A stretch of DNA of 63,387 nt, filler included, from Chiloscyllium plagiosum (GCF_004010195.1; 3 parts of 3 records of this genome joined end to end with filler, not necessarily neighbours in it), one strand, 5' to 3'; positions 336-63,320 are shown, counted from the first letter of the whole stretch. Notes: generated by a model from the sequence alone, not told the origin. Program-made: numbers and translations.

Positions 336-645
336 TCCTTCCAGCCCGGCACCGCCTTCCTGGCCTGCAGTCTTCTTCTTGACCTCTCCGCCTCCATCCT
401 ACTCCGACCTATCACCCTCACCTTGACCTCTTTCCACCTATCACATTTCCAACGCCCCTCCTCCAAGTCCCTCCTCCCTACCTTTTATCTTCTCCTGCTG
501 AACACTCTCTGCTCATTCCTGAAGAAGGGCCTGTGCCCGAAACGTCGAATCTCCTGTTCCCTGGATGCTGCCTGACCTGCTGTGCTGTTCCAGCAATAAA
601 GTTTCAACTTTGATCTCCAGCATCTGCAGACCTCACTTTCTCCTT
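336..645 (+). mobile_element. Penelope-like element (PLE) 3' end, family A, young copy
   Basis: Pyrimidine-rich tract, hammerhead motif, AATAAA, tail CTCCAGCATCTGCAGACCTCACTTTCTCC; near-identical to the reverse complement of 63106-63234. Confidence 0.75.
515..550 (+). ncRNA. Minimal type I hammerhead ribozyme motif (PLE-associated)
   Basis: AUUC-CUGAAGA-A-GGGC(CUGU)GCCC-GAAA-CG-UC-GAAU: intact core, stem I AUUC/GAAU, stem II, palindromic ACGU in place of helix III. Confidence 0.8.
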
Positions 646-1089
646 GGAGGATTTGAGTTATAGGGAGAGGTTGAATAGGCTGATGCTGTTTTCCCTGGAG
701 CTTTGAATGCTCAGGGATGATCTTATAGAGGTTTATAAAGTCATGAGGGGCATAGGGATAACTAAACAAAGTCTTTTCTCTAGGGTGGGGGAGTCCAGAA
801 CTAGAGGGCATAGGTTTAGGATGAGAGGCGAAAGGTATAAATGAGATCTAAGGAGCAACGTTTTAATGCAGAGGGTGGTACGTGTGTGGAATGAGCTCCC
901 AGAGGAAGTGGTGGAGGTTAGTACAATTGCAACATTTAAAAGGCATCTAGAGGCTATATGAATAGGAAGGATTTGGAGGGATATGGGCCGGGTGCTGTCA
1001 GGTGGGACTAGATTGGGTTGGATATTTGGTTGGCATGGATGAGTTGGACTGAAGGGTCTGTTTCCATACTGTACATCTCTATGACTCTT
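646..1089 (+). mobile_element. CR1/HER1 LINE 3' end
   Basis: RTRGHRF-type C-terminal RT region followed by the tail GAAGGGTCTGTTTCCATACTGTACATCTCTATGACTCT. Confidence 0.85.
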
Positions 1090-1949
1090 CAGATGTGATT
1101 ATGTTCAGCTTCCCTCATGCCTCATTCTGCTCATTTACGGTTGCTTTCCTTAAGAGCGGTTGGAATGTTCACTGAAAAGCAGTGTTCAGTTTAAACTATT
1201 GTTTTCTTTGTTCCTAGTTTTAGCAAAGAACTGTGTTATGACACAGTGTGGTGTTGGGGCAGCACAGCCAACATAAATTGACATCCTAATTTAATATAAG
1301 AATTACATGATAGAATTCTAACATAATAGAATTCTATTATATTGTACAGAAATAATAAAAGTGAACACAAAATGAACAAAATGAGCACAAATAAACAACT
1401 TGTTCATTCCTGATATTATCCTACAAAAGGCTCATGGGTTTGAAGTGATACTCTGATGAAGAATCTTTCTTCTGTGATTAAGCTACTATTGACTCCATTT
1501 CTTGAAGTTGGTCTTTGCAATCTGGTATATGCTTTGGTATATGCTTTGTCACTCCCATTTGATCAGATAATCTGAATTTAGGTATGTGTAAGGAAAAGGT
1601 CTTGAATAGCAATCTCCTCCAAGTGGGTAGGCTTAACACAAATTGTGTGTATTTTGTTTAGGAGTGTGAAGATATATTAGAGAATAGGAATATTTTAATG
1701 ATTAATGCCATTGCCAAGAAGCTACAGGCAAAGGTAAATCGAGTATTAGGATGTCTTTACAGGATAATCCATAAACTTACTTTTATACTGCACTTGGTTA
1801 GACTTCATTATTTTATTCAGTTTTAGTCCTTTCACGAGAGGAGCAGGCCGGAAACAGAAATGGTGGCCAGGAAACTCGGTAGCAGTCAACTGGAAGGTCA
1901 GGGTCAGAACATGAGTCTTCTCAAAGCAGTCACCCAGTTTGCAATTTGT

Positions 1950-4915: not shown

Positions 4916-4929
4916 GGGTTGTTTCGCCT

Positions 4930-4935: not shown

Positions 4936-5002
4936 GTGTCAGTTCTGAGACCGTATCATCATAAACATTGATCTTGGCTGTACATACATTGATTATTTAT
5001 GT

Positions 5003-5124
5003 TTACTTCTTTTTATTTTGTTTGATACAGTAAATGATTGTGATAAATAACAATTCTCCAGTTATGATTACAACAGAGGAGAGGCCAATGATCTTTGCTG
5101 CAAGCCTTCTGGCTGTTGTTTGAT
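5003..5124 (-). CDS. VCAM/ICAM-like gene, last exon: transmembrane helix and very short basic tail
   Basis: Acceptor ctttaattcag|AT; phase 1; (Y)QTTARRLAAKIIGLSSVVIITGELLFITIIYCIKQNKKK*. Confidence 0.75.
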
Positions 5125-5269
5125 CTGAATTAAAGAAAAGTAAAGAATGATTAAATTAATATCAAAAGTGTTCATTACACAATAACATACAAATATGGTT
5201 TAAAGTCCGCTTTAAAGTTATTTATCCTTTATATCCTCTCTCCTAATTAAAAGTGCGATTCCCCATTAA

Positions 5270-5535
5270 TGTCGAGGTGCCAGTGTCGACGAGGTTGGAC
5301 AAAACTAAAAATCACACATCACCAGGTCATTGTCCAACAGGTTTATTTGGAGGTACAAGCTTTCAGAGCGTTGCATCTTCGTCAGGTAGCTTGTGAAGTA
5401 GGATCGTCGGACACAGAATTTATAATAAAAGATACGACTGATGCAATGTATTGAACAAACCTAGATTGCTGTTAAGTCTTTAATGACTTAGAATGGTGAT
5501 GCAGGTTTTCATTGATTAATATAGAAATCCCAGGT
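5270..5535 (-). mobile_element. PLE family B 3' end with partly degenerate hammerhead motif (about 5357-5391)
   Basis: Homologous to 20712-20870; minus strand CUGACGA..GAAAGCUU. Confidence 0.6.
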
Positions 5536-6558
5536 GGGACTTGCCTCCCTGCGCTAGCCTCCAGTCTGTGACCTGCTGAGCTTTTCCAGCAATTTCTGTT
5601 TTTGTTTTTGATTTACAGCATTGGCAGCTCCTTCGGTTTTTATTTAGCTAACAGACAGGTAGAGCAGAATACACATCAGAATGTCCTGAAAAGCTATATC
5701 CTACATCTGCCAGTTGCTAGACAAGCATTTGCATCCTCAAGGACTGGGAAACATGTCATTTCAATTTCTTTGAAGAAGACAGCGATCCTCAATTTCTCAA
5801 GGAATTGATCATTGAAGGAAAACACTTAGGATCTCTATGAAATTTCACACTCATTCAGTTGTAAATTTATCTGGGAGGTGACTCATGGCTTCATCACTAA
5901 AGCCCATTAATATATTAGCTTTCCCTGGATGCTGGGAATCAGATGCTCAGGACATTCTGCATGGTTGCCATTGCTAGAAATCCATAGGGGCTGCATACAA
6001 ACAGTTGTAATCACGTAGCAATCAGAGCACACTATCAGCCACCAGCAATGTTCTGGAAAGGTTCCACACTGTAAGTGTGTGGATCATCTATGATGACACC
6101 AGCCAAGTAATGCAGATCTATTCACAAGATCCAGGGAGCTGTCACAACTCCTACATTCTGGAACCCTCAAAGGTGCCTGCATTGTTCAGTGCCCCTGACT
6201 TGCAAAGAATGAGCTGATTTGATTTAAATCTTTGCTGAAAATCTTGTTTACTAGTTGTTTATTAAAGAAATGTGCTTGCTGGATATTTTGATTCTAAACC
6301 TAATGTAGATAAAGCGTGTCATTGACTATATCTGTAACTGGATAAAGCATTTAAAGTTATGTTGTGTCCAGTGGTGAGGTGGGACCAGAGAATAACAGTA
6401 CAGTCTTGTTGAAAAGGTATGGAATCTTTGGTTATGTATGAGGAGACCCATTCAGTTTGGTTAGGACTAAGAGGAGAATTGGTATGAGAAATTCATTGGT
6501 CTGCATTTGGAAATAAAAAAACCCACTCATCTCTTGTCAGCAAAATTATTCCACTTAC

Positions 6559-6865
6559 ACAGGACATGGAGGGTTCCAACCTGTTGTTTAATAATAGGGC
6601 TTGTCATTGACTGATCTTGAAGTTTCAGTTCAGCTTCACAGATATACTGCTGTCCATCCAGCTTAGCTTGAGCTTCTACTGTATGAGAGATAATGAGCCC
6701 AGTACTGCTTGATCCATTCACTAATATGTCATTTCCTTTCTTCAGTCTGAGTTCAAGATCCCCTGAGACTTTTAACACAAGGCATGTAATATTAACCAAC
6801 AACATTCCGTGGGAGAATAAGGAAGAATAAAAATACATGGACAACAGGGAAAATGGAAATCGTGT
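6559..6865 (-). CDS. VCAM/ICAM-like Ig-domain exon, apparently frameshifted near its 5' end
   Basis: VNITCLV...LRLKKGN...DGQQYICEAEL...TLHVL then T|gtaagt donor. The best acceptor (cacag at 6866) gives a 307-nt exon, not a multiple of 3. Confidence 0.7.
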
Positions 6866-7492
6866 CTGTGTGGAATCGAATTCAACTGATTATCAAATTA
6901 AATAGACACAAGGATATCCACAGTGCCAAGAAGTTAGGGTGACTGCAGGAAGGGATTCAATTACCTCCTTAGGTGTAAACTCACTTGCTCAGTCACAATG
7001 CGCACAGGTCATTCACAACTTCCATATGTGAGAACTGATCCCGCAGGAGACCAATTGACAGAGTCAACAGTGAATTTACAAATGAGAGCAGGAGATCGAA
7101 ACTGCTGTTATTGCAGTTGTTCATCCCAACCAGCAATGAACCCTGTTTGCATGCGTGTTTCAAGTGGAGTTCCATTGTTTTCTGATGTAGATCCGTGATG
7201 TAGACATAGTTGCAGGAGCCAAGATTCAGAAGTTTGCTGATGATGCAACAATTGGTCGTGCAGTTGACTGTGACGACGAATGTCAGAGATTGCAAGGAAG
7301 TATCAATCTGGTGGAAAGGAAAATGGCGAATGGAATTGAATCCAGACCAAGCAGTGTTAACGAAAATAGGGAGAAGAAATAATAGCAGTGAGTATTCTGT
7401 GTGGTGCAGACAGACAAAGAGATCTTGGCGTGGACATTCATGATGACTGAAGATCAATGGACAGGGGAAATCAGTTGGATGGACGTGCGTAC

Positions 7493-8350
7493 TGTCGATG
7501 CTGGAGATCAGAGTCAAGATTAGAGTGGTGCTGAAGAAGCACAGCAGGTCATGCAGCACACATGTAGCAGAAATAAAGACGTTTTGGCAAAAGGCTTTCA
7601 TCAGGAATAAGGCTGGGAGTCTCGAGGTTGGAGAAGTAAATGGGAGGGGTGGGGCTTGGGAGAATTTAGCTGAGAGTGCAATAGGAGGATGGAGGTGGGG
7701 ATAAGAGTGTTCGTTCGGAGAAGAGGGTGGAGCGGATCGGTATGAAGGAAGATAGACAGGTGGGGCAGGTCAGTAGTACAGTGCCAAGCTGGAAGGTTGG
7801 AGCGAGTGTAAGGTGTGTGGCGGGGTGGGGAATAAGGAAACTGGTGAAATCCACATTGATGCCATGGGGTTGAAGTGTCATGAGGCAGAAGATGAGACGT
7901 TCTTCCTCCAGGCGTTGGGTGGTGAGGAAGTGGCTGTGGAGGAGTCTGAAAACCTGCATGTCCTCCGAGAAGTGGCGGGGAGGAGTTGAAGTGTTCGGTC
8001 ACGGGCGTTGGGATTGATTGTTGCCAGTCTCCTGGAGATGGTCTCTGAAGCGCTCTGTGAGAAGACGGCCGGTGGCCCCACTGTAGAGGAGACTGCATCG
8101 GGAGCAACGGATGCAATAAATGACGTGTGTGGAAGTGCAGGTGAAACTTTGATGGATGTGAAAGGCTTCTTTGGGGCATTGGGCAGAGGTGGAGTGTGTG
8201 TGGACGCAGGTTTTTCAATTCCTGTAGTGGCAGAGAAGGTGCCAGGAGGGGAGGGTGGATCATTGGAGGGCGGGGACTTGACGAGGTAGTCGTGGAGAGA
8301 CCGGTCTTTGCGGAAAATGGATAGGGGTGGGAGGGAAAAAAATATCCCTG
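7493..8350 (-). mobile_element. PLE 3' part with GIY-YIG endonuclease remnant
   Basis: Minus strand FTCTSTHVIYCIRCSRCSLLYSGATGRLLTERFRDHL...QPHGINVDFTSF, then purine/pyrimidine tract, degenerate hammerhead and tail. Confidence 0.85.
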
Positions 8351-8530
8351 GAGGTCTGTGTTACTGATATTTTTAACAAACCCACTGACAACCACAGATA
8401 TGTGGATTCCATCTCCTCCCACCCCACCTCCTGCACAAATGCTTTCCTGTGTTCCTAACTCCTCTGCCTCCGCTGCATCTGCTCCCAGAGGACCAGTTCC
8501 ACCACAGAACACACCAGAAGGCCTCCTTCA
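8351..8530 (+). mobile_element. PLE RT C-terminal fragment, inverted relative to the adjacent endonuclease part
   Basis: TDIFNKPTDNHRYVDSISSHP...LCLRCICS on the + strand. Confidence 0.7.
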
Positions 8531-8673
8531 TTTAAGATCGGAAATTCCCCTCCCATGTGGTGTTGGCAGTGGGACGAGATTGGGTTGGGATATCTGGTCG
8601 GCATGGACGAGTTGGACCGAAGGGTCTGTTTCCATGCTGTACATCTCTATGACTCTATAACCAGAATTCTTAC

Positions 8674-8967
8674 CATACACCTCAATAAAAGCACTATTAT
8701 TCTTTGAGGGAATTGATGGATATTTCTCAAAATCGGCCATACAGATGATTTCCATCAGACCAGATTCCTGTGGTGTCAATGCTGCTGTTATTCGGACAGT
8801 GTTGGAATTTGGCCTTGTGGTATCTGAGTTCAGTTCCACACCATCCTGAAACCATCTTACTCTCATCTTCTCAGCAGGATAGACATTTGAGACCTCACAT
8901 GTTAATGTGACCTCTTGCTTCACTTCTTTGGGTCTTTTGTCCAGGATTCTTGGCTGATCCATGAAAG
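8674..8967 (-). CDS. VCAM/ICAM-like Ig-domain exon (intact, phase 1-1)
   Basis: ttacag|CT...TAT G|gtaaga; 294 nt; VTLTCEVSNVYPAEKMRVRWFQDG...IICMADF. Confidence 0.9.
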
Positions 8968-9048
8968 CTGTAATACAGACAAGAAACTCACTTCATTTTA
9001 ATTTGTTGCAGTGTGTTTCAGTTTTGAATGGATAGAGTGGAAAACTGA

Positions 9049-9162
9049 TGAAGGGCTTTTGCCCAAAATGTTGATTCTAATGTTCCTCAGATACTGCCTG
9101 ACCTGCTGTGCTTTTTCTCTCTCGACTATAATCTCCAGCATCTACAGTCCTCACTTTCATCT
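9049..9162 (+). mobile_element. Short PLE 3'-end insertion with target-site duplication
   Basis: Flanked by AGAGTG(G)AAAACTGA on both sides; begins at the hammerhead core. Confidence 0.65.
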
Positions 9163-9389
9163 AGAGTGAAAACTGACATCATCCCAGAAATTTATCACGT
9201 TCACTCATAGTCAGAAAGCTGGAGACATCTGCAGAAGTTCACTTCTTTTATTTTTAAATTAATTCTTGCTACTTTTCAGGTATTTCAACTATTAAGTCTG
9301 TTTCATGTGCACCAATCAGTCTGAGTAGCATAATAATGTACCCCTGATTAACCTTCACTGTGATCTTCACTTGCATCTGTCTATAACAT

Positions 9390-10145
9390 GACTCGAAATA
9401 TGTGGTGCTGGAAAAGTACAGGAGGTCAGGCAGCATCTGAGGAGCAGCAGGTCAGGCAGCATCAAAGGAGCAGGAGAATCGACGTTTCGGGCATAAGCCC
9501 TTCTTCAGGAACCTAAAGAAGGGCTTCTGCCCGAAACGTCAATTCTCCTGCTCCTTTGATGCTGCCTGATCTGCTGCGCTTTTCCAGCAACACATTTTTA
9601 AGCTCTGACCTCCAGAGTGGCACGGTGGCACAGTGGTTAGCACTGCTGCCTGACAGCGCCAGAGACCCGGGTTCAATTCCCGCCTCAGGCGACTGACTGT
9701 GTGGAGTTTGCACGTTCTCCCCGTGTCTGCGTGGGTTTCCTCCGGGTGCTCCGGTTTCCTCCCACAGTCCAAAGATGTGCAGGGTCAGGTGAATTGGCCA
9801 TACTAAATTGCCCGTAGTGTTAGGTAGGGGCAAATGTAGGGGTATGGGGTGGGTTTCGCTTCGGCGGGTCGGTGTGGACTTGTTGGGCTGAAGGGCCTGT
9901 TTCCACACTGTAATCTAATCTAATCTAATCTAATCTGCAGTCCTCACTTTCTCCTTGCATCTGAGGAGCAGGCTAGTTGACGTTTCAGGGCATGAGCTCT
10001 TCCTGATAAAGCCCTTTATCAGGAAAGGCTTATGCCTGAAATGTCAGCTCTACTGCTACTCGGATGCTGCCTTGCCTACTGTGTTTTTCCAGTGCCACAC
10101 CTTTTGACTCTGACTCTCCAGCGTCTGCAGTTCTCAGTGTCTCTC
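9390..10145. mobile_element. Nested PLE fold-back elements (younger 9448-9956 inside an older one)
   Basis: 15-bp TSD GCATCTGAGGAGCAG at 9433-9447 and 9957-9971; opposed hammerhead motifs at about 9477-9511(-) and 9512-9545(+). Confidence 0.7.
9617..9935 (+). mobile_element. HE1-type tRNA-derived SINE
   Basis: A box TGGCACAGTGG, B box GGTTCAATTCC, V-SINE-like core, HER1 tail and (TAATC)n end. Confidence 0.9.
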
Positions 10146-11051
10146 TATCTATGACATCCTGGCTAAGGCTGGGATTTCAGTGTTCATAACCCAGGTGTAG
10201 ATTTTTGTAGTTTTCTTTGCCCTCTCTTTATAATGAGGTTTACTGAACTATTTATCACCCCCCCCCGCCCCCCCCCTCCTCATTACTGAGTGATGTTTAA
10301 GGCAGCGTGGTGAAATTCCTTCAGAAATTCCTGTCACTGTCAGGAATCTGCTGGCTGCCATGTGGCAAAGCAAGAGGTGACTGCCTCAGCCACCCAGTGT
10401 TCCTGAAAGTGGAAGGAGCGCCCATCAGTACACTTTAACCAATGGAATGTCTGGCAAGTCAGAACATACTCCAACTTGAGCTCTCCACCTTGAAGAAGGA
10501 AAATCAAGAGATGTGGGAACGGGTAAGGACATGGGGCTACAGTCAAAGATTAGTTATTGAACAGCAGAGTAGGCTCAAGGAGCTAAATGGCATATTCCCA
10601 CACCTGTTCCTTATGTTTATCTGCCTCGCAAAGATTTTATTGACTTTTTTGGACTAGATTTTGCACACTCTCTAGCAGGCTTAAAGATTTGTAGAACATT
10701 TAGAATTACACCATGAACAGGTCATAGAGTCATCCAACACGGTAACAGACCAGGTTTCCTAAACTGAATTACCCCCATTCACCTGTGTTTGGCCCATATC
10801 CCTCGAAGCCATTTCTGTGCAAATGTTGTATTTGTACCCATCTCTACTATGGGTGAGAAAATTGCATGTTTGCACCATTATTCAGGACAAACAATTCTTA
10901 TCCATCATATTTTGTAATGGGGACAAAACAAGAACTCATGAGAAGCCCATCTCTAGATTGCTTTCCATTGTTTATTCTGAACAAACTATAGGTATTTAAT
11001 CAATGGTATTTTCTAAAGAAAGAGAGCATTTCTTGTGCAATTAGAACTTAC

Positions 11052-11366
11052 CATAAGTTTGCAGACTGACAGAAGAGTTTGTGATTGACTTTGTGGTCTG
11101 AGAGCCCAAGTCCACTTCAGCCAAGCAGGTGTATTCCTGTCCATCATCTGATCGACTTGCAATGAAATTGAAGACATTTCTCAACCTTTTATCTTCATCC
11201 ACAGAACCTGGTTCGCCTGTGGAATTTCTCTGAAGAATCTCGCTACCTCTCAGCCATGTGAGTATGAGTTTATTGTTTGGATAGACTCTTGGGCGAATGC
11301 ACTCCAGACTATATGTTCTGTTAATCTCCAGTACTTCAGGGAGTAATGTAATGCTTACCTCTCGAT
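11052..11366 (-). CDS. VCAM/ICAM/MAdCAM-like Ig-domain exon (domain-2-like, intact, phase 1-1)
   Basis: ttcacag|AT...TAT G|gtaagt; 315 nt; YSLECIRPRVYPNNKLILTWLRG...DDGQEYTCLAEVDL. Confidence 0.9.
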
Positions 11367-11582
11367 CTGTGAAAGGAGAATCACAGTTAACAGGTTTCAC
11401 TGAAATGGTACGTTTAATGTTTCAGGCGTCCACTTGGTGTGGATAAGGAATGGAAGTGGACTGACCAGTATGCAGTTTCCCAAAAGGTTGTCAACTTCTG
11501 CAGGTAGCATGAGGTGTGTATGGGTCCATAGCAATTCCCAACCCACTTCTGCAGGTAGCCAATTAGGCTCATTCATACTTTT

Positions 11583-11672
11583 CCTGCTGAAGTGCTTTTG
11601 CCCAAAATGTCGATTTTCCTGCTCCTCGAATGCTGCCTGTCCTACTGTGCTTTTCCAGCACCACATTTTCGA
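11583..11672 (+). mobile_element. 90-bp PLE 3'-end insertion with 15-bp TSD
   Basis: CTCATTCATACTTTT at 11568-11582 and 11673-11687; degenerate hammerhead at the 5' end. Confidence 0.7.
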
Positions 11673-13200
11673 CTCATTCATACTTTTGTTAAAGGGAATA
11701 AAGGAGGCCATGTGGGAGCTTTCAGTTAACCTCCAGTTTCCCAACATAACACAGTCTGATGAACTGCTTGGAAGTATGCAACCAGAGGCAGACTGGGCGA
11801 CCAACGCTCAAGGCAGCTTGTGGCCTTCCATGCCTGCCTTAGTGCAGGTCCAATTGAAGACTGCCATGTTGAAAGATTCTCCCTGCCAACCCGCAACAGA
11901 GTTGGCTGAGCTGCTTTCACTTGTTTTTCATCATTTTTGTTTTTCAAAATTGAGGAGGCTGCAGAAGTGAGGAACTGGTGTTGTAGTGGTACTGTCACTG
12001 AACTGGCAATAATCTGGGGACATGAATTAAATCCCACCCTGGCAGCTGGTGCAATTAAGTTCAATTGAAAGCTCACCTAATGATGATGATTATGAAGAAA
12101 CCATTATTGATTGTCATAAAAACCCATCTAATTCGCTACATTGATTAGGGCACTGAAGGTAGCAAGGGTACATAGTGCAATCTGAGTGCACAAATTCAGT
12201 GACCATTACCAGAAGTATCTCAGTAACACCACTATTGATTGAGCTAGCAGAGTCCGAAAGGACATAACTGCTAGATTGGTTCTGCAGTAGATGAGGTGGG
12301 AACCAAGGAGAGACAAAATCATACTTGATTTTATTTCCACCAATTTACCTGCCTCAAATGTAGCAATGAGAGTATTGGTGGAAGTGATTGACACACAGAT
12401 CTTATGGAGATTAACTCCAACCTTCTCACTGTCACAACTCCGTGACGTAGTATACTGGAGATCAGGTCTCACTATTCCCAGAATCATCACAAGTTACAGC
12501 TATTGTACTGAAGTCCACATAACAAAGCTCACATATTCCTAAAAATCTCATGATTTTCTATTCAGCTTTAGAAATGTGGAATTCAATCAGATTCTTCACT
12601 TATGCGGTTCTTGGTAATATTTATCTTTGCCCTATGAAGTATCCCAAGTAAGTTACCTTTGCTTTTGTGAATTCACTTTTGGCCAGATTTATTACTCAGC
12701 CAGCTGACTACAATTGCTTAAGTAGGTCTTCTAAGTACCTTACATGGTCTTCCCATGTATATAACAACATTGTCTAATAAAACTGCAATATCAGATACTT
12801 TAGCAATGGCTTGATGCAAAAGTCTTTGGAATGTAACTGGGGCCATTTAAAACCCAGAGAAGTCACTTTACTTACTGTCTTAACATGTTTCTATTGACCA
12901 CTGATCTTTGCTTTCAGAGGTTCATCCTGTTTAAGCGCACAAAAACTTTGTATCCTGCTTGCAACTATCTAATATTCTGTTGACAACATGCTTATCTGCC
13001 TATTCTTTTCATAATCTCCTGGGAGGTGTTTAAATGCTGCTGCACAATTTTATGTGCTCCCATAAGTCTGTAGAAACTGAACATACAATCCAATAGTGAC
13101 CAATTTATGTTCTTTTGTCTTAAGAACTCTTCCATAATCAATTTTAATGGCTTGTCTCATGCTCATTGATTAGTTCAGTTGGATCAAACCCAAATGATTC

Positions 13201-13470
13201 AACAAGTCCACACCGACCTTCCGAAGAGCAACCCACCCAGACCCATTCCCATACATTTACCCCTGACTAATGCACCTAACACTACGGGCAATTTAATATG
13301 GCCAATACACCTGCACATCTTTGGACTGTGGGAGGAAACCGGAGCACCCAGGGGAAATCCACGCAGACACAGGGAAAATGTGCAATCTCCAAACAGACAT
13401 TGCCCGAGGTGGGAATTGAACCAGGGTCCCTGGCATTGTGAGGCAGCAGTGCTAACCACTGAGCCACCCC
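13201..13470 (-). mobile_element. HE1-type SINE (3'-truncated)
   Basis: Reverse complement matches the 9617 SINE; tail missing. Confidence 0.85.
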
Positions 13471-14692
13471 GATGAGGAAATCCTTCTGTATATCCATGGC
13501 CAAGAGGAAGAATATTCGAGAATCCTCTGCTTCCAGCTGTCACATCGATAATGACAATATGGATGAGACAACGTGAGTTGACGAATGTTCTGGTGCTCCA
13601 CTTAAAACTGAAGAGCCAAGGAAGATGAACAATCAGCCACCAAGGTTCCTGAAAAATCAAGAATGTAGATGCACACGAAGTGTCATTGAAACTACCACAA
13701 ACAATCAAGAGAAGGAGCTGTCAGCTAATGTAGAAACATGTAGAATTTCAAAAGTTCAGAAAGGTTATCTTATCACAGAGAGCAGTGATTCTGACGAACC
13801 AGTTTTTCTTGATGGCCAGAATGTTGAACGGAAACGGAGTTATAAGCATGCAGTGGCAGCTGTGTGTAATTACAATGAAGAATTAGAAACAGATGACTTT
13901 CCACCAAGAAAGAAGACCCCTTCACCAGACCTTACAGCCAGCCATGTGGTTCGACTAAAGCACAACAGCTTCCTCCATGCAGTTCAAAAGAACCAATTGA
14001 TGATGACCCCAGTGTCTGTTGGCTGCACAGTAGTTAAGTCCTTCATTAAATGCACACTCCACTGAAAGTTGATCCCAAGGAACAAGAGACAGCTCGTCTG
14101 GCAAATCTAAAGAAGAAACGAGAACAAGAGGAAGAAAGAATGCAAAAGATGGAGGAAGAGAAGAAACGCAAAATGGAAGAGTTTAAAAGAAACGGGAAAT
14201 GCAAATAAAGCGTGTTTTGGAAACCCGTTCCAGAGTTCAACAACAAGAAGAAGAAAAGATCAAAAAAATTGAGCAGAAGTTTGCTCAAATTAATGAGAAG
14301 AATGCAAATTAATGAGAAGAATTGTGGGCGGCACGGTGGCACAGTGGTTAGCACTGCTGCCTCACAGCGCCAGAGACCCGGGTTCAATTCCCACCTCAGG
14401 CGACTGACTGTGTGGAGTTTGCACATTCTCCCCGTGTCTGCGTGGGTTTCCTCCGGGTGCTCCGGTTTCCTCCCACAGTCCAAAGATGTGCAGGTCAGGT
14501 GAATTGGCCATGCTAAATTGCCTGTAGTGTTAGGTAAGGGGTAAATGTAGGGGTATGGGTGGGTTTCGCTTCAGCGGGTCGGTGTGGACTTGTTGGGCCG
14601 AAGGGCCTGTTTCCACACTGTAATCTAATCTAAATCTAAATCTAAATCAAAGATGCGTAAGGAAAGATTTGCTGAAGAGAAAGCAAAAAAAG
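13471..14692 (+). pseudogene. INCENP: Processed pseudogene fragment of inner centromere protein, split by a SINE
   Basis: SFLHAVQKNQLMMTP..VVKSFIK/TPLKVDPKEQETARLANLKKK...IEQKFAQINEK [SINE] KMRKERFAEEKAKK matches the INCENP central and coiled-coil region as I recall it; no introns; frameshifts and stops. Confidence 0.88.
14326..14648 (+). mobile_element. HE1-type SINE inserted in the INCENP retrocopy
   Basis: Full length, near-identical to the 9617 copy, (TAAATC)n tail. Confidence 0.9.
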
Positions 14693-15100
14693 AATATTGA
14701 ATTCAACATTTTTAGGGTTTGAGGCCACCTCGTTACCCCAAGACGTGCACACCAGGCCTTGTTATTACACAGGCTGCTACAACTTTATCAGCTACTAATA
14801 GCCCCAATTAGGAGGTATTCATTGCCCCCAGACTGACCTTTAGCCACTTCTGTCTTTCCAACTGTTTTTCTTTCTCTTTGGTCTTTATCTTCACTGATCA
14901 TTTCCTCCTCTCCGGCCCCACCCAATGTCCTGAGTAAATATCAGCTTTTTCCTAGCTTCCATCAGTTCTGAAGAAGGGTCCCTGGACCTGCATTGTTAAC
15001 TCTGATTTCTCTCCACAGATACTGCCAGACTTGCTGAATGTTTCGAGCAATTTCTGTTTTTATTTCTGATTTTCAGCTACCATGCTGCTTCTATTTTTTT
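14693..15100 (+). mobile_element. PLE family C 3' end
   Basis: Starts with NIEFNIFR (aligns with PLE endonuclease end NVDFTSF); degenerate hammerhead GTTCTGAAGAAGGGTC..GACC..GTTAAC at about 14965-15000; tail shared with 50419-50560. Confidence 0.65.
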
Positions 15101-15489: not shown

Positions 15490-17150
15490 GATCATGATGT
15501 ACAAAACACCTCAGACAGTTGTTCTCATCACTGAGGACCACACTGAATGCTATGTGCCACCATTTGCACACTCTTGAGCTCTTTTTCAATCAGTGCTACC
15601 TCTTGCTGGCTCAGAGCTGTCCTGCACCTCAGTTTCAATGGACTTTCCAGCTCTTTCAGCATTCTAATAAGAATCTTTTTTTCTTTCAGGCATTGAGAAA
15701 TGCAAACTGGTACAACTCAGAGATACACATGCCCCTCTGGAATGCCACTCCCCTCCCTTCTCCTCTGACTCTATCCTTTTTCCTGATTCTACTACTTGTC
15801 AAATATTTAATATCCCTTCTGACCTTCCACTCTCTGATGGTGAACATTCCACACTGAGCAACTGTCTTAGTTGTATCTCTTTGTGCCCTCACCTTAATGA
15901 ATTTTGAATGCACATGTTTTGAACTCTTCTTCCGTCACCTCTGCCTCTGTGCCCAATTCTTTGGGTAGAGTCCTCTCTACACCCCATGGAATCTTCACCC
16001 GCCTCCAACACTCTCCCTTTACCTGGACTCTTCCTTGTTGCCTTTTTCCTGCTCTTGACCTGTTGAGAACTGCTGATGCAGCATTGGTTGTCTTAATTTC
16101 CCTACCTCACATTACACATTTGAACCAATCTCCTTCTGAACTGACTGCTGTCAGATCCACTTCTGACTTTCTCATCAAGCCTGCAAACAAGGATAGTGCT
16201 GTTATTGTGTGTCATAATGACCTCAACATTGCAGAGGCTTAGTGCCAGCTGTTGGACATCTTCTATCTTACCCTGGACTACGATCCCACCATTGAGCATC
16301 ACACCATTGTATCCACAACTTTAATTAACCTCATTTTATCTGGGAATCCCCCCCCCCAACAGCCTCTAAACCCATAGTCTCCCAATTGCCTACACTGAAC
16401 TCTCAACTGTTAATGTTGATCTCTCTCACTGCATCTTCCCTGCAGCTTTAATACTGTATTCTAACATCTGCTTGCAATATGATTTTGATCTCTAGCTATG
16501 GACTTTATTAGCCATTCTGTTCTGTTACCTGATGGACTTTGTATGGTATGAACTGCCCATAGACCATGCAAAACAACATTTTTCACTATATCTCGGTACA
16601 TGTGACAACAATAAATCCAATCAATTCAAATCAAAATCCTGCTTTTACCTTCTACCCACCTGAGCGGACCCATCGCTTCTGCCTGTTCCTGCCCTGCAGA
16701 ACTTATTTCTTCCTTCTTCAACTCTTTTTCTCCCCTTGACAGTCTCTCCCCCTTGCATCCATGATTCTTCTGATGCTTTACATCATTTTCCAGTATGTTG
16801 GCATCAATCTCCTCCTGTTCACCATGGACTTGCAATCCCTTTACATGTCCATCCCCCATAAGGGTGTTCTTAGACCCTCCACCTCTTCCTGGAAAGAAGA
16901 CCTGAACCGTCCCCATCCAACATCACACTGCTCCGCAACACACAAGCTCGTTCTCACTTTTAATAACTTCTCCTTTAATCCTCTCACTTCCTTTAGTCAA
17001 AGTTTGAGTACCCACATGGGCTCCAGTTATGCCTGTATCTTTGTGGGGTACATGGAACATTCCTTGATCCAATTTACTCGTGGTCCTCCAAATACTCTTC
17101 CTCTGGTATATTTTTGCCTTTTTTCTGGTGCAGTTTCCCTTAGGCATTCT
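15490..17150 (+). mobile_element. Degenerate PLE reverse transcriptase region
   Basis: IKPANKDSAVIV, LFTMDLQSLYMSIPH, LVLTFNNFSFN, HMGSSYACIFVGYME motifs. Confidence 0.85.
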
Positions 17151-20400: not shown

Positions 20401-20711
20401 GACTATTGGGCCACAGCAGAATTGTCCTCTAACACAATGTGCAATCTTGTGGCTTGCCATATTTCCTACTCTACCATTATCATCAACCAGGGGATCAAAC
20501 AGGTTCAATGAAGAAAGCAAAAGGACATGCCAACAGCAGCACTAGCAATGTCTAAAACCGAGGTGTCAGCATAGCGATGTCACAGTACAGGGCGACTTAT
20601 TTGCCAAATAGTGGAAGGAGTATGTGATTGACAGAACTAATTGATCATACAACTAACGGATCAGATGTAAGCTCTGGACCTTCCTTCCATCACAAGATTA
20701 TGAATGGAATG

Positions 20712-25750: not shown

Positions 25751-25754
25751 CAAT

Positions 25755-49400: not shown

Positions 49401-49868
49401 GAGGGAGTGCAGAGGAGGTTCACTGGGTTGATTCTGGAGTTGAGGGGGTTTGCCTTATGGGGAGACGTTGAGTAGATTGGGATTATATTCATTAGAATTC
49501 AAAAGAATGAGGGGGAGGGGGGGAAATCTTATACAAACATATGAAATTATGAAGGGAGTCGATAAAATAGAAATAGATTGGATGTTTTCACTGGTAGATG
49601 AGACAAGGACAAGAGGGCATGGCCTCAAGATTAGAGGAAGCAGGTTTAGACATGAACTGAGAAGGAACTTCTTCATCCAGAGGGTTGTGAATCTATGGAA
49701 TTCCTTGCCCAGGGAAGTAGTTGAGGCTACTTCAGTAATCACTTTTAAAGCTAAGGTAGATGCTTTTTGTTTGGAAAATAAAGGAATTAAGGGATATGGT
49801 GAAATGTGCGTAAGTGGGGCTGAGTCCACAAAAAGATTCGCCTACTCCTGCTCCCAGTCCTTATGTGA
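46420..49868 (+). mobile_element. Long degenerate CR1 LINE: ORF1 SGNH-esterase, APE endonuclease, RT, 3' tail
   Basis: CLPGARVQD..GTNNIG; ITETWL, GGGVAL, SDH; KSPGPDG, YLDFQKAFDKVPH, GVPQESVLGP, KFADDTK, RTRGH. Confidence 0.95.
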
Positions 49869-50049
49869 GTGAGTGAGAGAGAGTCATTGTCAATTATCTT
49901 GCTCACCTTTTCAAAATAGTTGGTTGTACTTTCCTCTGCAGTTTATAGACTGTCCGTACACTCTGCTTGAGGTGAATTCGTTCATTTTTTTTTCCAACCT
50001 ATATAAAATGGTTTCAAACTTCAGCAAAGTCGACACCAGTTTATCTAAA

Positions 50050-50560
50050 AGTACTGCGGACGCTGGAATCAGAAACAAAAGCAGAATTTGCTAAGAAAAC
50101 CCAGCAGTTCTGGGAACATCTGTGAAAAGAGGAAAGCAGTGTTAACGTTTCAGATCCAGCAACCCTTCTTCAGAACTGATTCTGGCAAGGAAAGGTTGGT
50201 GCACTCGCTGGGTGGGTCGGGGGAAGGTGAGAGAAGTAAATGAGATGAAGCCCACCTCTCTAATCTCTGCACTGAACTTGTGTCGGTATTGATGCCGTTA
50301 TCTTGATGGGAGTTGTGAGATGCTGCCCTCCCCTAGTAGTAAATTCTTCAGTGTTTTTCTGCCGGCTACCATTGCGGTAGCGTCCGTCTGCCAGCAGATG
50401 GTGGCATTGTATCACTTTGTTCTGAAGAAGTGTCACTGGACACGAAACGTTAACTCTGCTTTCTCTCCACAGATGCTGCCAAACCTGCTGGGTTTTCCAA
50501 ACAATTTCTATGCTTTTTTTTTTGGGTTTATAATTTCCAGCATCCAGCGTTCTTTGTTTA
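50050..50560. mobile_element. Two PLE family C 3' ends in inverted orientation (about 50050-50235 minus; 50419-50560 plus)
   Basis: Mutually reverse-complementary tails, each with a hammerhead motif. Confidence 0.65.
50419..50454 (+). ncRNA. Minimal hammerhead ribozyme motif
   Basis: GUU-CUGAAGA-A-GUGUC(ACUG)GACAC-GAAA-CG-UU-AAC. Confidence 0.75.
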
Positions 50561-55043: not shown

Positions 55044-58000
55044 TTGCGCATCTGCTGAAAACAACATTCCCCTTTTATTCCGAATTTAAAATATCACAAA
55101 CAGCTATACACTGTACATAGCCACATGCTGTCAGTTCAATAATAATACAAACTTGGAAAAACAGTGTTAACTACATTAAGAATTTGAATTTTGATGTAAT
55201 TTATTGGAGATTTGCCAACATGTCCTGATCTCATGATTGTATTCCCTCCTGAAGAGGTGTTTTTTCTTCCCTCAGTTGCTCTTAGCTGAAAACAATTGTC
55301 TTGCTGCTGGTTACTGATGTTCAGCATCATTGCACAATCATGTTGGACCTTTCCTTATCACTTTTGTGCATGATGGTACATCGTGCATTGGTCTAGGCTG
55401 TTATCTGTCCCTTTGCAATATAGCACCACAATCTGTAAAAACATATGATCTGGGCTAATTAAATATCTCAAATCTTTGCTGGTATTCAGGTATTTGAGAC
55501 AGTGCGTAGTTGCAGTAGTTCTCAATCTGCTTGCTGATGGTGTTTCTTTCTCCTCTACCTTTGAAGAGTGAAGTCCTGTGACTCGCTCATCACTTGGAGT
55601 GTGGTTTGAACCTCATGAATGGTTACAATGTGATGTTTTATGGTACCGACAGCCCAGCTGGTATTTACCAGGTGGATGATGATTTAGATAATCCAAGCTG
55701 AACTTGCACATTGTGTGCACGTACAGAAAATCTGGGAAATCAGTGGCATAATCACACTGCAGCACCAATGTCCTTTAGTTCCATGTGCTTTTATAACTGT
55801 GAAAAACACCAGGCAATCACTCAGTGGTTATGACTTAACATGGCTATAACAGATCCTGCTGCTTTAATGCAGTTTGCTATCTGTATGAAGTGTTGTGTGC
55901 ACCCAAAGCCTAAAATTGAAGTTGGCCTGTTACTATGGCTTCATGTTGCTGTCCATTTCCCAGCAAAATGGCGTTTTTTCTTGACCAGAACATTTTTATG
56001 GCAAGCTTTGATCAGAGTATAACTAATTATCAGTTCAATTGATCTCTCTGCAAGTAAATTCTTGGGGCTGTTTGTATGTCATCAGTCTGTGTGTATAAAT
56101 CCAGAAGCCAATTCAATTCTTGAGCGGGCCCTCAAGAACTCCAATCTGGATGTTTTTCTTGACCTCAAAGAGGAGATGTATTGATTCAGCGAAGCCCGTC
56201 CTTTCAGACAGCAAGAAATAATTTAAGAGCTCTCCTGTGGGGACCATTTACTGCTTGATCTGTAAAGCAGAGCTGCATATTTTGCTTCGATAGTTGTAGT
56301 TTGGTGAAGATGTCACTTGCTGCCCAACATAGAATTAAATGCTTGCCTCCCTTTCTTACTGCGGTCTGTGTTTTTTTATTCTGTTGAGGTAGAGCATTGG
56401 GCTTACTTATTCCATCCTTCTACGTTGTTCTTGTACCCTTCTATTTTTCCTTTTCTTCATTTCTCAGTTGTGGCCTCATGAGGAAGCTTTGCCAAGTGTG
56501 GATCGATGTCTATGAAAAAGAATCTATAATGGCAGGTGTCAGCCAAGGGAGGGAGTTTTCACTACACAGGATTGATGATATCACATCTGGCACTGCACTG
56601 AAGGAGACAAAATGCCAGAACCAACCAACCATTGCACACAGCTAAGTTTTTCTTGGTTAGAAAATTTGAACATGCAAATAGTATTTTGTTTACAAACTGG
56701 AGTGTATTGTTAAACTGACAATATCATTTATTTGCCTTAGTTTTAGAGACTGGAAGAAGCCTTTCAGTTGCCAATTTTAAATCTGTAAGCTGGTTGCTGT
56801 ACCATAACTTGGGAAGTAGACTTAAATATAATTATGGTTTCTAACAGCAATATAGGGCTAACAACTTGATAGGTCTTGAATTTTAAGGAGATAAAAGTTA
56901 AGTGTGCCTATTGGCTCTTTAGGTTCAAGATCTGCACTCAAAAAATGTAAGTGGTTTGAAGTTCAAATGCCCTATGATCCAAAGCTGTCTAAACCTCAAT
57001 TCTTTTATAAGCAGTTACTGGTTCTTATTACTGTGTTGTCACTGTAACATGATAGAAGACCGTAATGTGATATAGTGAGATACACTGCATAAGATAAAGA
57101 TGCATGGTGCTACAGGCAATATATTAGCATGGATAGAGGATTGATTAACCAACAGGAAGCAAACAGTGGGGATAAAGGAGTGCTTTTCTAGTTGGTGAGC
57201 AATGATTAGTGGTGGGCCTCAGGGATCAGTTTTGGGACCTCTGGTTGTTTACAATTTACATAGATGATTTGGAGTTGGGGACCACATGCAGTTTGTCAAA
57301 GTTTGCGCTTGACACTAAGATGAGTGGTAAAGAAAAATGTGCAGAGGACTGTGAAACTTTGCAGAGGGATATAGATAGTTTACAGTGGGTGGGCAAGGGT
57401 CTGGCAGATAAAAGCTGGTAAATGTGAAGTCATCCATTTTGGTAAGAATAACAGTAAAAAGGACTATTATTTGAAAGTTAAAATATTTCAGCATGCTGCT
57501 GTGCAGAAGGACCTGGGTGTCCTTGTGCATGAATCGCAGAAAGTTGGTTTGCAGGTGCAATATGTAATTAAGGCAGCAAATGGAACTGTGTCCTTCTTTG
57601 CTAAAGGGATTGAGTTTAAAAACAGGGAGATTATGTAGCAGCTGTATAGGGTGCTGGTAAGGCCACATGTGGAGTACTGTGTGTTGTTTTGGTGTCCTGA
57701 CTGGAGAAAAGATGTACTGGTACTGGAGGCAATGCAGAGGAGATTCACTTAGCTGATTTCAGCATTGAGAGTTTTGGCTTATGAGGAGAAACTGAGTAGA
57801 CTGGGATTACATCCATTGGAATTGAGAAGAATGAGGTGAGATCTTATAGAAATTGTGAAGGGAATAGATAAGATAAAAGCAGGAAAGATGCTTTCATTGA
57901 CAGGTGAAGCTAGGACAATAGGGCATAAGCCTCAAACTTAGATGGAGCAGATTTAGGATGGAATTGTGAAGGATCTGTGGAATTCCCTGCCCAGTGGAGT

Positions 58001-58059
58001 AGTTGAAGCTTCCTCATTGGCTGTTTTAAAGGCTAAGATAGATCATTTGTAGTGTATGT

Positions 58060-58146
58060 GTAGTCATGGCCGAGTGGTTAAGGTGATAGATTTTAAAAAA
58101 GCTCGTTGGAGGGTTCCCCACATAGGTTTGAATCCTGCTGTCTACG
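58060..58146 (+). pseudogene. tRNA-Ser-derived pseudogene
   Basis: GTAGTCATGGCCGAGTGGTTAAGG...GGTTTGAATCCTGCTGTCTACG matches vertebrate tRNA-Ser ends; anticodon arm disrupted. Confidence 0.8.
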
Positions 58147-58199
58147 TTGTGAATGACTTCTTACAGGGCGACTTTTCGCTCAAAGTTCAGGAAACCAAT

Positions 58200-59150
58200 T
58201 TTGTAACTTTGAAGATGGACGAGGGAGATCCAGTAGATGTAGTGTCCCCTGGACTTTCAGAAAGCTTTTGATAAAGTCCCACATAGGAGGTTAGTGAGCA
58301 AAATTAGGGCGCATGGTATTGGGGGCAAAGTACTAACTTGGATTGAAAGTTGGTTGGCTGATAGGAAACAAAGTAGTGATAAACGGCTCCATTTCAGAAT
58401 GGCAGGCAGTGACCAGTGGGGTACCGCAGGGATCAGTACTGGGACCGCAGCTTTTTACAATATATGTTAATGATATAGAAGATGGTATTAGTAATAACAT
58501 TAGCAAATTTGCTGATGATACAAAGCTGGGTGGCAGGGTGAAATGTGAGGAGGACGTTAGGAGATTACAGAGTGACCTGGACAAGTTAGGTGAGTGGTCA
58601 GATGCATGGCAGATACAGTTTAATGTGGATAAATGTATGGTTATCCACTTTGGTGGCAAGAACAAGAAGGCAGATTACTACCTAAATGGAATCAATTTAG
58701 GAAAAGGGGCAGTATAGAGAGATCTGGGTGTTCTTGTACACCAATCAATGAAGGTAAGCATNNNNNNNNNNNNNNNNNNNNNNNNNNNNNNNNNNNNNNN
58801 NNNNNNNNNNNNNNNNNNNNNNCAGGAAACATGTTTCCGCTGATGGGTGAATGCCGAACCAGAGGACACAGCTTAAAAATACGGGGTAGACCATTTTGGA
58901 CAGAGATGAGGAGAAACTTCTTCACCCAGAGAGTGGTGGCTGTGTGGAATGCTCTGGCCCAGAGGGCAGTGGAGGCCCAGTCTCTGGATTCATTTAAGAG
59001 TTGGATAGGGCTCTCAAGGATAGTGGAATCAAGGATTGTGGAGATAAGGCAGGAACAGGATACTGATTAAGGATGATCAGCCATGGTCATATTGAATGGT
59101 GGTGCAGGCTCAAAGGGCAGAATGGCCTACTCCTGCACCTATTGTCTATT
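58200..59150 (+). mobile_element. Younger 5'-truncated CR1 (contains N gap 58762-58822)
   Basis: GVPQGSVLGPQLFTIYVND..KFADDTKLGG; CTATTGTCTATT tail. Confidence 0.92.
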
Positions 59151-60009: not shown

Positions 60010-61070
60010 AATGTGGAAAATTGCAAGGTCACCCACTTTGGCAAAAAGAATGAAAAAGTAATTTAATGTTTCAATCGAGAGATTGCAGAACTCAGAGGTG
60101 CAGAGGGATCTGGGTGCCCTGGTACATAGATCACAAAATGTTAGTATATGTGGAAAATATGTGCTTTGGAAGGAGCTCGGATAAGGTTCATTCTATTCAT
60201 TTCTGGAATGGGGATTTTGGCTATGAAGAAAGATTGGGCCTTTATGCACTGGAAGTTAGGAGAATGAGAGGTGATCTTCTTGAATCATATGAGATCCTGT
60301 GGGATTTGATGGTGGATATTGAGAGAATATTTCTTCTTGTGGCCCTAGGCTGTTTTGTTCCCAGTTTTATTTCATGACAATTTTATCACAGCAAATATAC
60401 AACAGACCTACACATGAAGCCTAATACAGCCTCTGATGCAAGATACATCAATTATATGGGCTATGGACTTGGGAGCAGAAGGAGGCCATTTGACCCTTCA
60501 AGCCTGCTTCATCTTTTGGCAAGATTGTAGCCAATCGGTTTATGGTCTCAACTCTGCTTGTCGTCTGCCCATAATAATCCTGGACTTTGTCAACCAAAAA
60601 TCTATCTTATTCTTGAGCAAATTCAATGATTCGGCCTCCACTGCTTTCTGAAGAAGAAAATTCCACAGGTTAACAGGTCTCTCAAAAAACATCCATGTCC
60701 CCATCTTAAACTGTGCCCATGTATTCAATTGTCCCCCCCACAAGAAGAAATATTCTCTCAATATCCACCATCAAATCCCACAGGATCTCATATGATTCAA
60801 GAAGATCACCTCTCATTCTCCTAACTTCCAGTGCATAAAGGCCCAATCTTTCTTCATAGCCAAAATCCCCATTCCAGAAATGAATAGAATGAACCTTATC
60901 CGAGCTCCTTCCAAAGCACATATTTTCCACATATACTAACATTTTGTGATCTATGTACCAGGGCACCCAGATCCCTCTGCACCTCTGAGTTCTGCAATCT
61001 CTCGATTGAAACATTACATTATTTTTTCATTCTTTTTGCCAAAGTGGGTGACCTTGCAATTTTCCACATT
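60010..61070. repeat. 333-bp near-perfect inverted duplication (60010-60342 / 60738-61070)
   Basis: Arms differ at about 2 positions; identical ORF-track translations on opposite strands. Confidence 0.95.
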
Positions 61071-61780
61071 ACACTCCATCTACCGATGTTTGCCCACTCA
61101 CTCAATCTATACCCCTATGCAGACTTTTGACCTTCTTTTGATAATGACACAAATATAGATAGAATAGTAAGTTAAGTTTAACTGCTGCACAAATTGTGCT
61201 CACAGTCCAAGTTATTGATATGGACTATAAATATTTAAAAGGTCCAGCACTGATCCTTCTGGCAATCCACTAGTTACAGCTTGCCATCTTGAAAAAAAGA
61301 TCCATTTATCCCTTCTCTCTGTTTCCTGTTACATATGTTATTGCCTACACTATGTGATCTTACCTTCTGTAGTAATCTTTCACGTGGCACCTTATCAAAT
61401 ATACTACACCGACAGATTCTGCTTTACCATTCTAGCTTGTTATTCCATCAAAAAAAAATTAATTAATTGACTGATTCCCCTTTCAAAACATTTCTAATAT
61501 TCTGCTGTAATATTCATAAGAATTGATCCAGTAATTTCTCCACAACAGATATTAAGCTAAATGACCTCTAGTTGTTGGTTTTTGGTCATCCTCCTTCTTG
61601 AATAAAAAGGTGTTTATGTTTTATTTGCTATCTTTCAATGCATTACCCGCTTCCAGAATAACAAATTTTAAAAGAATATAATTGATACCTCCACTATTCT
61701 CACTTTCATTTCTTTTAAGATGTTTGGATGCAGGCTATCTGGTCCTCGGGACTTGTCATCCCTTCTGCCTAACAGTTTTC
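60450..61780 (-). mobile_element. Old CR1 RT/3' end
   Basis: DDKSRGPDSLHPNILKE, FDKVP, CKVTHFG and VNLWNF remnants. Confidence 0.75.
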
Positions 61781-63105
61781 CCAGCACATAAACACTGAGC
61801 TATCGCTGAAATGTTACGAACTGTTTATTCATGCAGTGAAACAGACAAGAGCATTTGCAGCTGGATTTCAGCATCCTACATCAATGATGCAACCAGCAAA
61901 CACTCCCTGGTGAAATGAAAGTCTGAAATTTACACAATGCTTCTGCCAGAAGGCTTTAAAAATGTATTTTTACTAAATAAGTAATTTGAAAATACAGTAA
62001 TTGTTTTATTTAGAAAAATGCAGTGGTCATTTTCTCTCAGTATGGTCAGAGATGTAAGGTGTACAAAGCTGTGAGGGGCATAGACAAGGCGGGTAGGGAG
62101 AAACCTTTCCCCTGAGTAAATGGGTCACAACCTGCAAACACTGTTTTAAAGGGGAAAAGCAAGAGTTTTAAAGGATATTTTCTCTCAGTATCTGGAAGTC
62201 ACTGCTCAAGAAAGTGTGTTAGAAGCAGCAACCATCAGACATTTTAGTAGTATGTGGATGTGCACTTGAAAGTCTATAGCATTTAAAATTCTGGGCCAAC
62301 TGCTGGCAAATGGAAGAAAAGATGGGCTGAAGGGCCTTTTTCTGCACTGTAAAAAAGTGTATGACTAAAAAGGATTGGAGATCAATGACTCATTAATCTG
62401 AATTTTCAGCGTTGGTTAGAATAGGAATATTGTCAAGACATCCAAAGAGCCCTATTGACCAGCACCTTAAGATTGGACTACACTTCTTATCCATTGTACC
62501 TATCATTAACTGTACTTCACATCAACTACTTGTCTAAAATGGGTTGCTGTGAAGCCCAATGGTTCTTACAACTTGACCATCCAAGATTCAGGGAACTCAC
62601 TTCTTTCTATAGTTCTACCTCTGATGCTTTCATGAATTTCCGTAGATTTTGCAGGAGATTTATTTGGGCACTGTTGCCTACTTAGTAGCTCAATCGGCAT
62701 CAGAAAACTGAGATACTGTACCAACTGGAAAAACAAGCAAAGGTATGGGAACATTGGTTCAAATGAATGCTCACAAGTTCCACTTAGGTGGTTTTGCCAC
62801 AATAAAATGTGGCCAAGTAAAGGATTGCACCACTGCATTGTAACACCCTTCCAACCCTCCTCCACATCACAAAAAAATCCAACTCTGACTTTACAATAGC
62901 TTAATTCATTTAGCAGAATCCTGGCCAAGTGTTGCTGAGGAGCTGACCATCTGGAGCAGATGTGGTCATGTTGGGGAAGGGGGGGGGAGAATGAGTAGAA
63001 ACAATTTTCCTTCAGGTACACCCTACTGGTCCCAATAACAACAAGCATTGCTTACATAAAATCCCAATTTGTGTTTCTGTGGTGGTAATACATTGGTATA
63101 ACACA

Positions 63106-63320
63106 GGAGAAAGTGAGGTCTGCAGATGCTGGAGATCAAAGTTGAAACTTTATTGCTGGAACAGCACAGCAGGTCAGGCAGCATCCAGGGAACAGGAGAT
63201 TCGACGTTTCGGGCACAGGCCCTTCTTCAGGAATGAAGAAGGGCCTGTGCCCGAAACGTTGAATCTCCTGTTCCCTGGATGCTGCCTGACCTGCTGTGCT
63301 GTTCCAGCAATAAAGTTTCA
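63106..63320. mobile_element. Young 215-bp PLE fold-back insertion with 16-bp TSD
   Basis: ACATTGGTATAACACA at 63090-63105 and 63321-63336; palindrome 63141-63322; intact hammerhead at 63199-63234(-). Confidence 0.85.

Follow-up and report, generated by a model that had tools for sequence, protein, structure and literature searches.

Hammerhead copies and the host gene

The window (the whole stretch of 63,387 nucleotides that was analysed) contains an ICAM5/VCAM1-like host gene, reverse-transcriptase remnants of Penelope-like elements (PLEs) and, by nhmmer profile and covariance-model searches, 19 copies of a minimal hammerhead motif in three families (family A, 12 copies; B, 3; C, 4). The catalytic core is intact in eight copies and degenerate in the other 11, in keeping with the roughly ten degenerate copies of the original prediction, and two further covariance-model hits (E 0.74 and 0.83) were discarded as chance. 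Copies are named by the coordinate of C3: 519(+) is the motif at 515-550, 9508(-) that at 9477-9511, 20918 that at 20915-20949, 50422 that at 50419-50454, and 63230 that at 63199-63234. The host gene occupies 5003-11400 on the minus strand, with exons at about 11400-11050, 8968-8663 and 6850-6557 and a terminal exon at 5124-5003; one Ig exon has 94% identity to a Chiloscyllium punctatum protein, and exons upstream of these were not found in the window.

Family A begins with an intact hammerhead at 515-550(+) (H17 at 546), the sole copy with an intact stem II that has no head-to-head partner, in a fragment of about 330-644 on the opposite strand to the ICAM-like gene and outside its coding exons. 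A 3' fragment at 7480-8348(-) carries a decayed, frameshifted GIY-YIG end (8002-8214), a 3' region and a dead hammerhead (C3 7604). Two mini-insertions, at 9045-9161(+) and 11583-11672(+), start at the hammerhead core and are degenerate (G12>A in the first). The arm at 9384-9511(-) bears the core-intact motif at 9477-9511 (H17 at 9481) and stands head to head with an inverted arm at 9512-9616(+) whose core is mutated to CTAAAGA and which is predicted to sequester it; a second, scrambled fold-back at 9957-10141 includes partial hammerheads near 10006 (minus) and 10018 (plus). Degenerate minus-strand copies lie at 23948-24170 (C3 24069) and 25748-26025 (C3 25870), and a young palindromic insertion at 63106-63320 has an intact minus arm (63199-63234) and a plus arm that begins at U4 of the core.

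Family B comprises a copy at 5263-5430(-) (C3 5385), in which the core is intact, stem II broken and stem I compensatory, and a pair of arms at 20708-20868(-) and 20869-21003(+); the first arm has an intact motif at 20798-20832 (H17 at 20801) and the inverted arm a core-intact motif at 20915-20949 (H17 at 20946). Copy 5385(-) has the orientation of the ICAM-like gene and falls in its last mapped intron. Family C is represented by copies at 14963-15088(+) (mutated GAAA box), 19854-19982(-) (degenerate, G12>C), 50050-50195(-) (core intact, C3 50173, H17 at 50144) and 50418-50543(+) (intact motif at 50419-50454, H17 at 50451), the last two head to head across a spacer of about 236 nt.

Identification of the motif

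The order CTGA(A/T)GA, extra A, stem II, GAAA, CG or GC, U and H is found at all six sites that had been named as intact motifs, each at the position and on the strand proposed. A strict descriptor, which asks for the core, 4 bp or more in stem II, and A-NN-U-H, returns seven sites in the window, these six and the copy at C3 50173(-), which the original prediction lacked; NN is palindromic in all seven, and none has fewer than 2 bp in stem I. Dinucleotide shuffles (n=300, 2-kb blocks) give no strict hits when the palindrome and stem I are required and 0.077 hits per shuffle when they are not. The eighth core-intact copy is 5385(-), with its broken stem II. As had been proposed, helix III is replaced in all eight core-intact copies by a palindrome (15.1-16.1 / 15.2-16.2), ACGU in families A and C or AGCU in family B. 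The extra A between 9 and 10.1 occurs in every anchored copy, and the 10.1-11.1 pair is G-C in five and G-U in two of the seven copies with an intact stem II. The motif has all four features described in PMC4209133 (an extra nucleotide, G10.1-C11.1, a palindromic 15.2-16.2 and covarying families), and the reading of the copies as minimal type I hammerheads of the PLE type, in three families whose stems covary, is supported.

None of the copies matches the Rfam hammerhead models at E<=10, and a covariance model made from families A and C misses family B. A relaxed descriptor gives 18 hits, 11 of them family copies and seven rejected as chance or tail antisense, and reveals no fourth hammerhead family in the window. 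Rfam matches at the palindromes are to miRNA-like models and were rejected, and ARAGORN reports no genes in the window. Cut out as 40-nt pieces, the motifs show no folding advantage over shuffles (z -1.05 to +0.21).

With 62,529 non-N bases and eight core-intact copies, the density is one per 7.8 kb. The host genome is presumably a few gigabases in size, and scaling the window density to it would give some 10^5 copies, above the counts of 2014; this is an upper-leaning guess, since the window was chosen for its hammerheads.

Covariation between and within families

Base pairs were counted from copies anchored at C3 and G12 by script, as MAFFT shifts family B by one column. Among the three families, six of seven stem pairs are altered on both sides and are still Watson-Crick, a count that carries no formal statistic and draws on only about three independent lineages. 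The stem I pairs across the families are C-G/C-G/U-A, U-A/A-U/U-A and U-A/C-G/G-C, and pairs 3-4 of stem II are G-C/A-U/G-C and C-G/G-C/U-A. Double changes are also seen within families, with U-A in 50422 against G-C in 14968 and 50173 (family C), and U-A in 5385 against C-G in the other family B copies. The proposal of at least three families with covarying stems is thus borne out, although on about three lineages. Of the stem I versions listed in the original prediction, AUUC/GAAU holds only for the 515 and 63199 copies, which are identical over 132 nt; in 9477-9511 stem I consists of two Watson-Crick pairs followed by U-U. Beyond the window, the same motif with other stems occurs in at least 51 of the 122 metagenome matches listed (from 120 loci). 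At least three structured ones among the matches listed have a GIY-YIG-like frame upstream, and none of the structured matches listed is similar at the DNA level to the window families.

Insertion architecture and 5' ends

TSDs of 15-16 nt surround three insertions: the units of 90-117 nt at 9045 (TSD of about 16 nt) and 11584 (perfect, 15 nt), and the palindromic insertion at 63106-63320 (perfect, 16 nt, from 63090 and 63321). The last combines an inverted arm, a one-sided tail (about 32 nt, on the minus arm) and a TSD. The family B pair likewise has an inverted arm and a tail of about 36 nt that is present on the 20708-20868 arm only; its one candidate TSD is 6 nt long. The TSD search gave nothing convincing for 519, 7604, 24069, 14968, 19977, 5385 and the family C pair, and a repeat that agrees at 12 of 14 positions around 9376/10144 is a doubtful TSD. 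The arms of head-to-head pairs differ by substitutions, and the window contains no head-to-tail, same-strand ribozyme tandems.

The 5' ends of the copies cluster at the ribozyme. In eight of the 17 scorable copies (63230, 63233, 9508, 9513, 9045, 11584, 50422 and 19977) the start lies within -6 to +2 of C3; the arms of family B begin some 45 nt before C3, and the remaining scorable copies are longer. None of the 17 starts at the cut site, nor does any copy in a profile search with the tail alone, a pattern that fits copying from uncut RNA, in line with the account in PMC11167929.

Carrier elements

The family A motif is tied to PLEs by protein-level evidence. The Pfam GIY-YIG model matches 8002-8214(-) with 22.8 bits (cut-off 22.6), on the same strand as, and about 400 nt upstream of, C3 7604, and one 841-aa reverse-transcriptase protein matches both this GIY-YIG fragment (E 1e-14) and the reverse-transcriptase remnants at 16642-17087 (E 3e-13). 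These belong to decayed remnants at 16024-17087(+) that have no adjoining hammerhead and whose fragments Pfam does not detect. A HMMER search with the endonuclease fragment retrieved 1039 proteins; a word-index protein search with it yielded none of 56 candidates. This 841-aa protein, like others closest to the family A endonuclease, has a CX4CXXC linker (of the CX2-5CXXC pattern, between reverse transcriptase and endonuclease) that is decayed in the window copy, and by this likeness the family A linker looks Neptune/Nematis-like, a group as defined in PMC8557442.

Families B and C are assigned to PLEs by motif and architecture, so that the PLE identity originally proposed for all of the copies stands on proteins for family A and is probable, by resemblance, for the other two. 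With 152 related proteins, tblastn matches only 7800-8500 and 15900-17100, and no PLE reading frame lies beside any family B or C copy in the window. This absence, together with a 2026 preprint that derives animal retrozymes from PLE pLTRs and reports them in one chondrichthyan (bioRxiv 10.64898/2026.07.22.740005), would suit the idea that B, C or both depend on PLE proteins as non-autonomous elements of a retrozyme-like or SINE-like kind. The idea is nevertheless improbable: short, 5'-truncated copies are expected to lack a reading frame in any case, the window has no ribozyme tandem of the head-to-tail kind, family C has tail sequence in common with family A (E about 1e-5; family B does not), and family B has the inverted-arm-plus-tail architecture.

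Decay after insertion

Decay was followed in the nine family A copies that remain when 63230 is dropped as identical to 519 and the two scrambled copies are left out. Degenerate copies decay at CpGs: in CpG columns 15 of 54 cells are off the majority base, against 44 of 421 elsewhere (p=0.001), and 14 of the 15 CpG-column differences are of the deamination type (C>T or G>A). The CpGs include core G12, changed in four of the nine copies, and the palindrome, changed at four of 18 cells. Across the whole core, seven of 98 cells are changed, which does not set it apart from the flank (p=0.18); with CpGs excluded, changes number 3 of 89 in the core against 30 of 234 in the flank (p=0.012). The better-kept non-CpG core could mean selection after insertion and counts against a reading of the copies as passengers. 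The flank also holds differences between subfamilies, and the choice of copies and their anchoring on the core weigh on the comparison too, which is therefore confounded and does not separate selection on master elements from selection on the copies.

Folding in context and the host gene

Seven copies retain both the core and stem II, and six of these lie in head-to-head pairs. Folded alone, five of the seven form stem II with a probability of at least 0.96, and stem II is weak even in isolation in 20918 (P 0.12) and 50173 (P 0.02); once 330 nt of upstream sequence is included, the value is 0.00 for the six paired copies and about 0.94-0.95 for 519(+). In these equilibrium folding predictions, the antisense arm thus sequesters six of the seven copies with an intact stem II. 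Dimerization is predicted to be restricted by family as well. Pairing rules allow two members of one family to build both stems I (2-5 bp) together with a helix III of 4 bp; when the two come from different families, at least one stem I is left with 0-1 bp.

The original prediction placed the copy at 9477-9511 on the transcribed strand of a VCAM-like gene, and this is correct: it lies, in sense orientation, in the intron that separates the exon ending at 11050 from the one that starts at 8968. The larger claim drawn from it, that the scattered copies are together a functional set of ribozymes and cleave host pre-mRNAs, in cis or in trans, as dimers, is highly improbable. Its attractions are the eight core-intact copies in 62.5 kb, the position of 9508(-) and 5385(-) on the sense strand of introns, the conserved non-CpG core positions and the precedent of canonical, conserved intronic hammerheads in amniotes (PMC6155905). 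Within the gene, however, four copies are on the sense strand and none is both foldable and partnered: 9508 is sequestered and has a 2-bp stem I, 5385 has a broken stem II, 7604 is dead and 10006 is scrambled. The region of 9477-9511 is predicted to form a hairpin of -126.9 kcal/mol (z -20), with the antisense arm transcribed first, in which P(stem II) falls from 0.99 alone to 0.00, and the gene offers no intact compatible dimer partner for it. Partners from another family would fail the pairing rules, published activity is low even for dimers (PMC4209133) or protein-dependent, and the Anolis RNA-seq described in PMC11167929 has no ends at the cut site. Intronic copies are accordingly unlikely, in these models, to cut host RNAs. 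Cutting of host pre-mRNAs would impose a surprising genome-wide regulatory load, and the evidence here points against it.

Origin of the copies

Chance matching as the source of the motifs, or misassembly as that of the palindromes, has next to no probability despite the N-gaps in the window and the unremarkable folding of isolated motifs, given the absence of strict hits from 300 shuffles, the substitutions between TSD-flanked arms and the recurrence of the motif with varied stems among the metagenome matches listed.

Very probably, the motifs are hammerheads of the pLTRs of endonuclease-bearing PLEs, and the copies in the window are 5'-truncated, decaying and largely buried passengers. The motif would be under selection in active master elements, which would account for a fixed core combined with stems that covary between families. 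Uncut RNA would have been reverse transcribed from a point about 90-125 nt 3' of the core, often no further than the 5' edge of the ribozyme, and several insertions also gained a second arm in inverted orientation. Once inserted, the copies would be passengers that decay by CpG mutation and are presumably inactive in vivo, those in head-to-head pairs folding into long hairpins that bury the ribozyme.

A bolder extension of this origin, speculative and on balance unlikely, is that in these shark PLEs the hammerhead serves as a structural landmark in integration and not as a cutter. The cDNA made on uncut RNA would end or fold back at the 5' edge of the ribozyme, yielding short, TSD-flanked and often palindromic units in which the antisense arm silences the ribozyme, and the genome could then carry about 10^5 hammerhead-headed units harmlessly. 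Stem I and the palindrome would act as a family-private dimer code, since families A, B and C are unable to complete each other's dimers.

Two features keep some interest: the gathering of 5' ends near the start of the ribozyme, and palindromes predicted to silence themselves. Motif counts overstate the number of working ribozymes, since hairpins are predicted to bury most intact copies here. Should the 5' ends prove to cluster genome-wide, the stubs would provide a large data set on where PLE templates start or reverse transcriptase stops, which would bear on what the PLE hammerhead is for.

Comparison with known systems

The results extend a known motif to a bamboo-shark-like genome. No shark-specific report of minimal hammerheads was found in the largely open-access literature searched, and the supplement of PMC4209133 may list one. 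Minimal hammerheads were described in the pLTRs of metazoan PLEs, with about 4,000 in coelacanth and 9,000 in Xenopus (Cervera & de la Pena 2014, PMC4209133); the monomers do not cleave, dimers cleave at low levels and opposite-strand pairs occur. The copies in the window resemble them in being type I, in lacking helix III and having a palindromic 15.2-16.2, in the extra nucleotide after A9 and the short stems, and also in the presence of several covarying families per genome, mostly as solitary truncated copies together with opposite-strand pairs. They differ in their shark host, which the text consulted does not name, in a density (1/7.8 kb) that would exceed the coelacanth and Xenopus counts if it were genome-wide, and in a stem II of 4-5 bp versus 7-8 bp in the Schistosoma motif.

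The insertion architecture is that of endonuclease-bearing PLEs, in which an inverted, 5'-truncated pLTR, a 30-40-bp tail on one end and a TSD have been described (PMC8557442, PMC3846280). Head-to-head arms, a one-arm tail of 32-36 nt and TSDs are common to both; the units here are only 90-230 nt long, and many of those in families A and C start no more than a few bases from the 5' edge of the hammerhead. A further parallel is Poseidon of Anolis (Frangieh et al. 2024, PMC11167929), which also has a pLTR hammerhead and whose insertion template is uncut RNA, as proposed here. There, the hammerhead is protein-assisted and dispensable for insertion in vitro, uncut RNA is the dominant insertion substrate, and two reverse-transcription start sites explain the tail, to which the tails here may be likened. 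The family A linker, by contrast, looks Neptune/Nematis-like, and the elements here are known from sequence.

Two other kinds of hammerhead invite comparison. Animal non-LTR retrozymes (PMC7229834 and the preprint cited above) are likewise short, non-coding type I hammerhead units related to PLE pLTRs, but they are head-to-tail tandems of mostly canonical hammerheads, whereas those in the window stand singly or in head-to-head pairs. The amniote intronic hammerheads (RECK and others, PMC6155905) share with 9508(-) and 5385(-) an intronic position on the sense strand; those are canonical and conserved across species, whereas the ones in the shark gene are minimal repeat copies that are decaying or predicted to be sequestered.

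Sequence features of the hammerhead copies

About 20 nt past the cut site, the family C copies of the Penelope-like element (PLE) minimal hammerhead carry a pyrimidine tract with CAG at its end, followed by ATG (50466-50475(+) and 15012-15021(+)). To judge from the sequence, this arrangement resembles a 3' splice site with a possible start codon. A weaker counterpart of the same feature is present in family A. At 5569-5630(+) there is a fragment made up of tail sequence alone, related to both family C and family A; it has no hammerhead, and its start lies well 3' of the cut site.

The tail of the inverted family A arm at 9512-9616(+) is interrupted by a repeat at 9617-9925, which is presumably SINE-like, and continues beyond it before abutting the next fold-back. 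Other copies of this repeat (repeat families D5-D9) occur near 13200-13470, 14330-14630, 32000, and 37550. In the scrambled fold-back (9957-10060), the hammerhead 5' part is present twice, with its orientation swapped, and is flanked by two 3' parts. Directly upstream of the degenerate family A copy at 25748-26025(-) is a simple tandem array with N-gaps (26028-27890).

Genes and other repeats in the window

The ICAM5/VCAM1-like gene (5003-11400(-)) comprises three Ig exons followed by a short terminal TM exon, the latter with a 95% match to a Hemiscyllium protein; neither the first Ig exon nor the later ones of its Chiloscyllium relatives turned up in the window. An uninterrupted rhodopsin-family GPCR reading frame of 334 residues occupies 38615-39616(+) (Pfam 7tm_1, E 2e-14). 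An inverted repeat with 333-nt arms (60010-60342 and 60738-61070; 99% complementary, 395 nt apart) is possibly a young non-autonomous DNA transposon. The LINE-type reverse-transcriptase fragments at 48780-49870 and 57250-59070 (Pfam RVT_1) are separate from the decayed PLE reverse-transcriptase remnants in the window.

Comparison with metagenome loci

Among the matches listed from the metagenome search for the same minimal hammerhead, three loci (L015, L056, and L064) carry the motif on the same strand as a GIY-YIG-like C-terminus and 3' of it, and two (L034 and L117) each carry two motifs on opposite strands.
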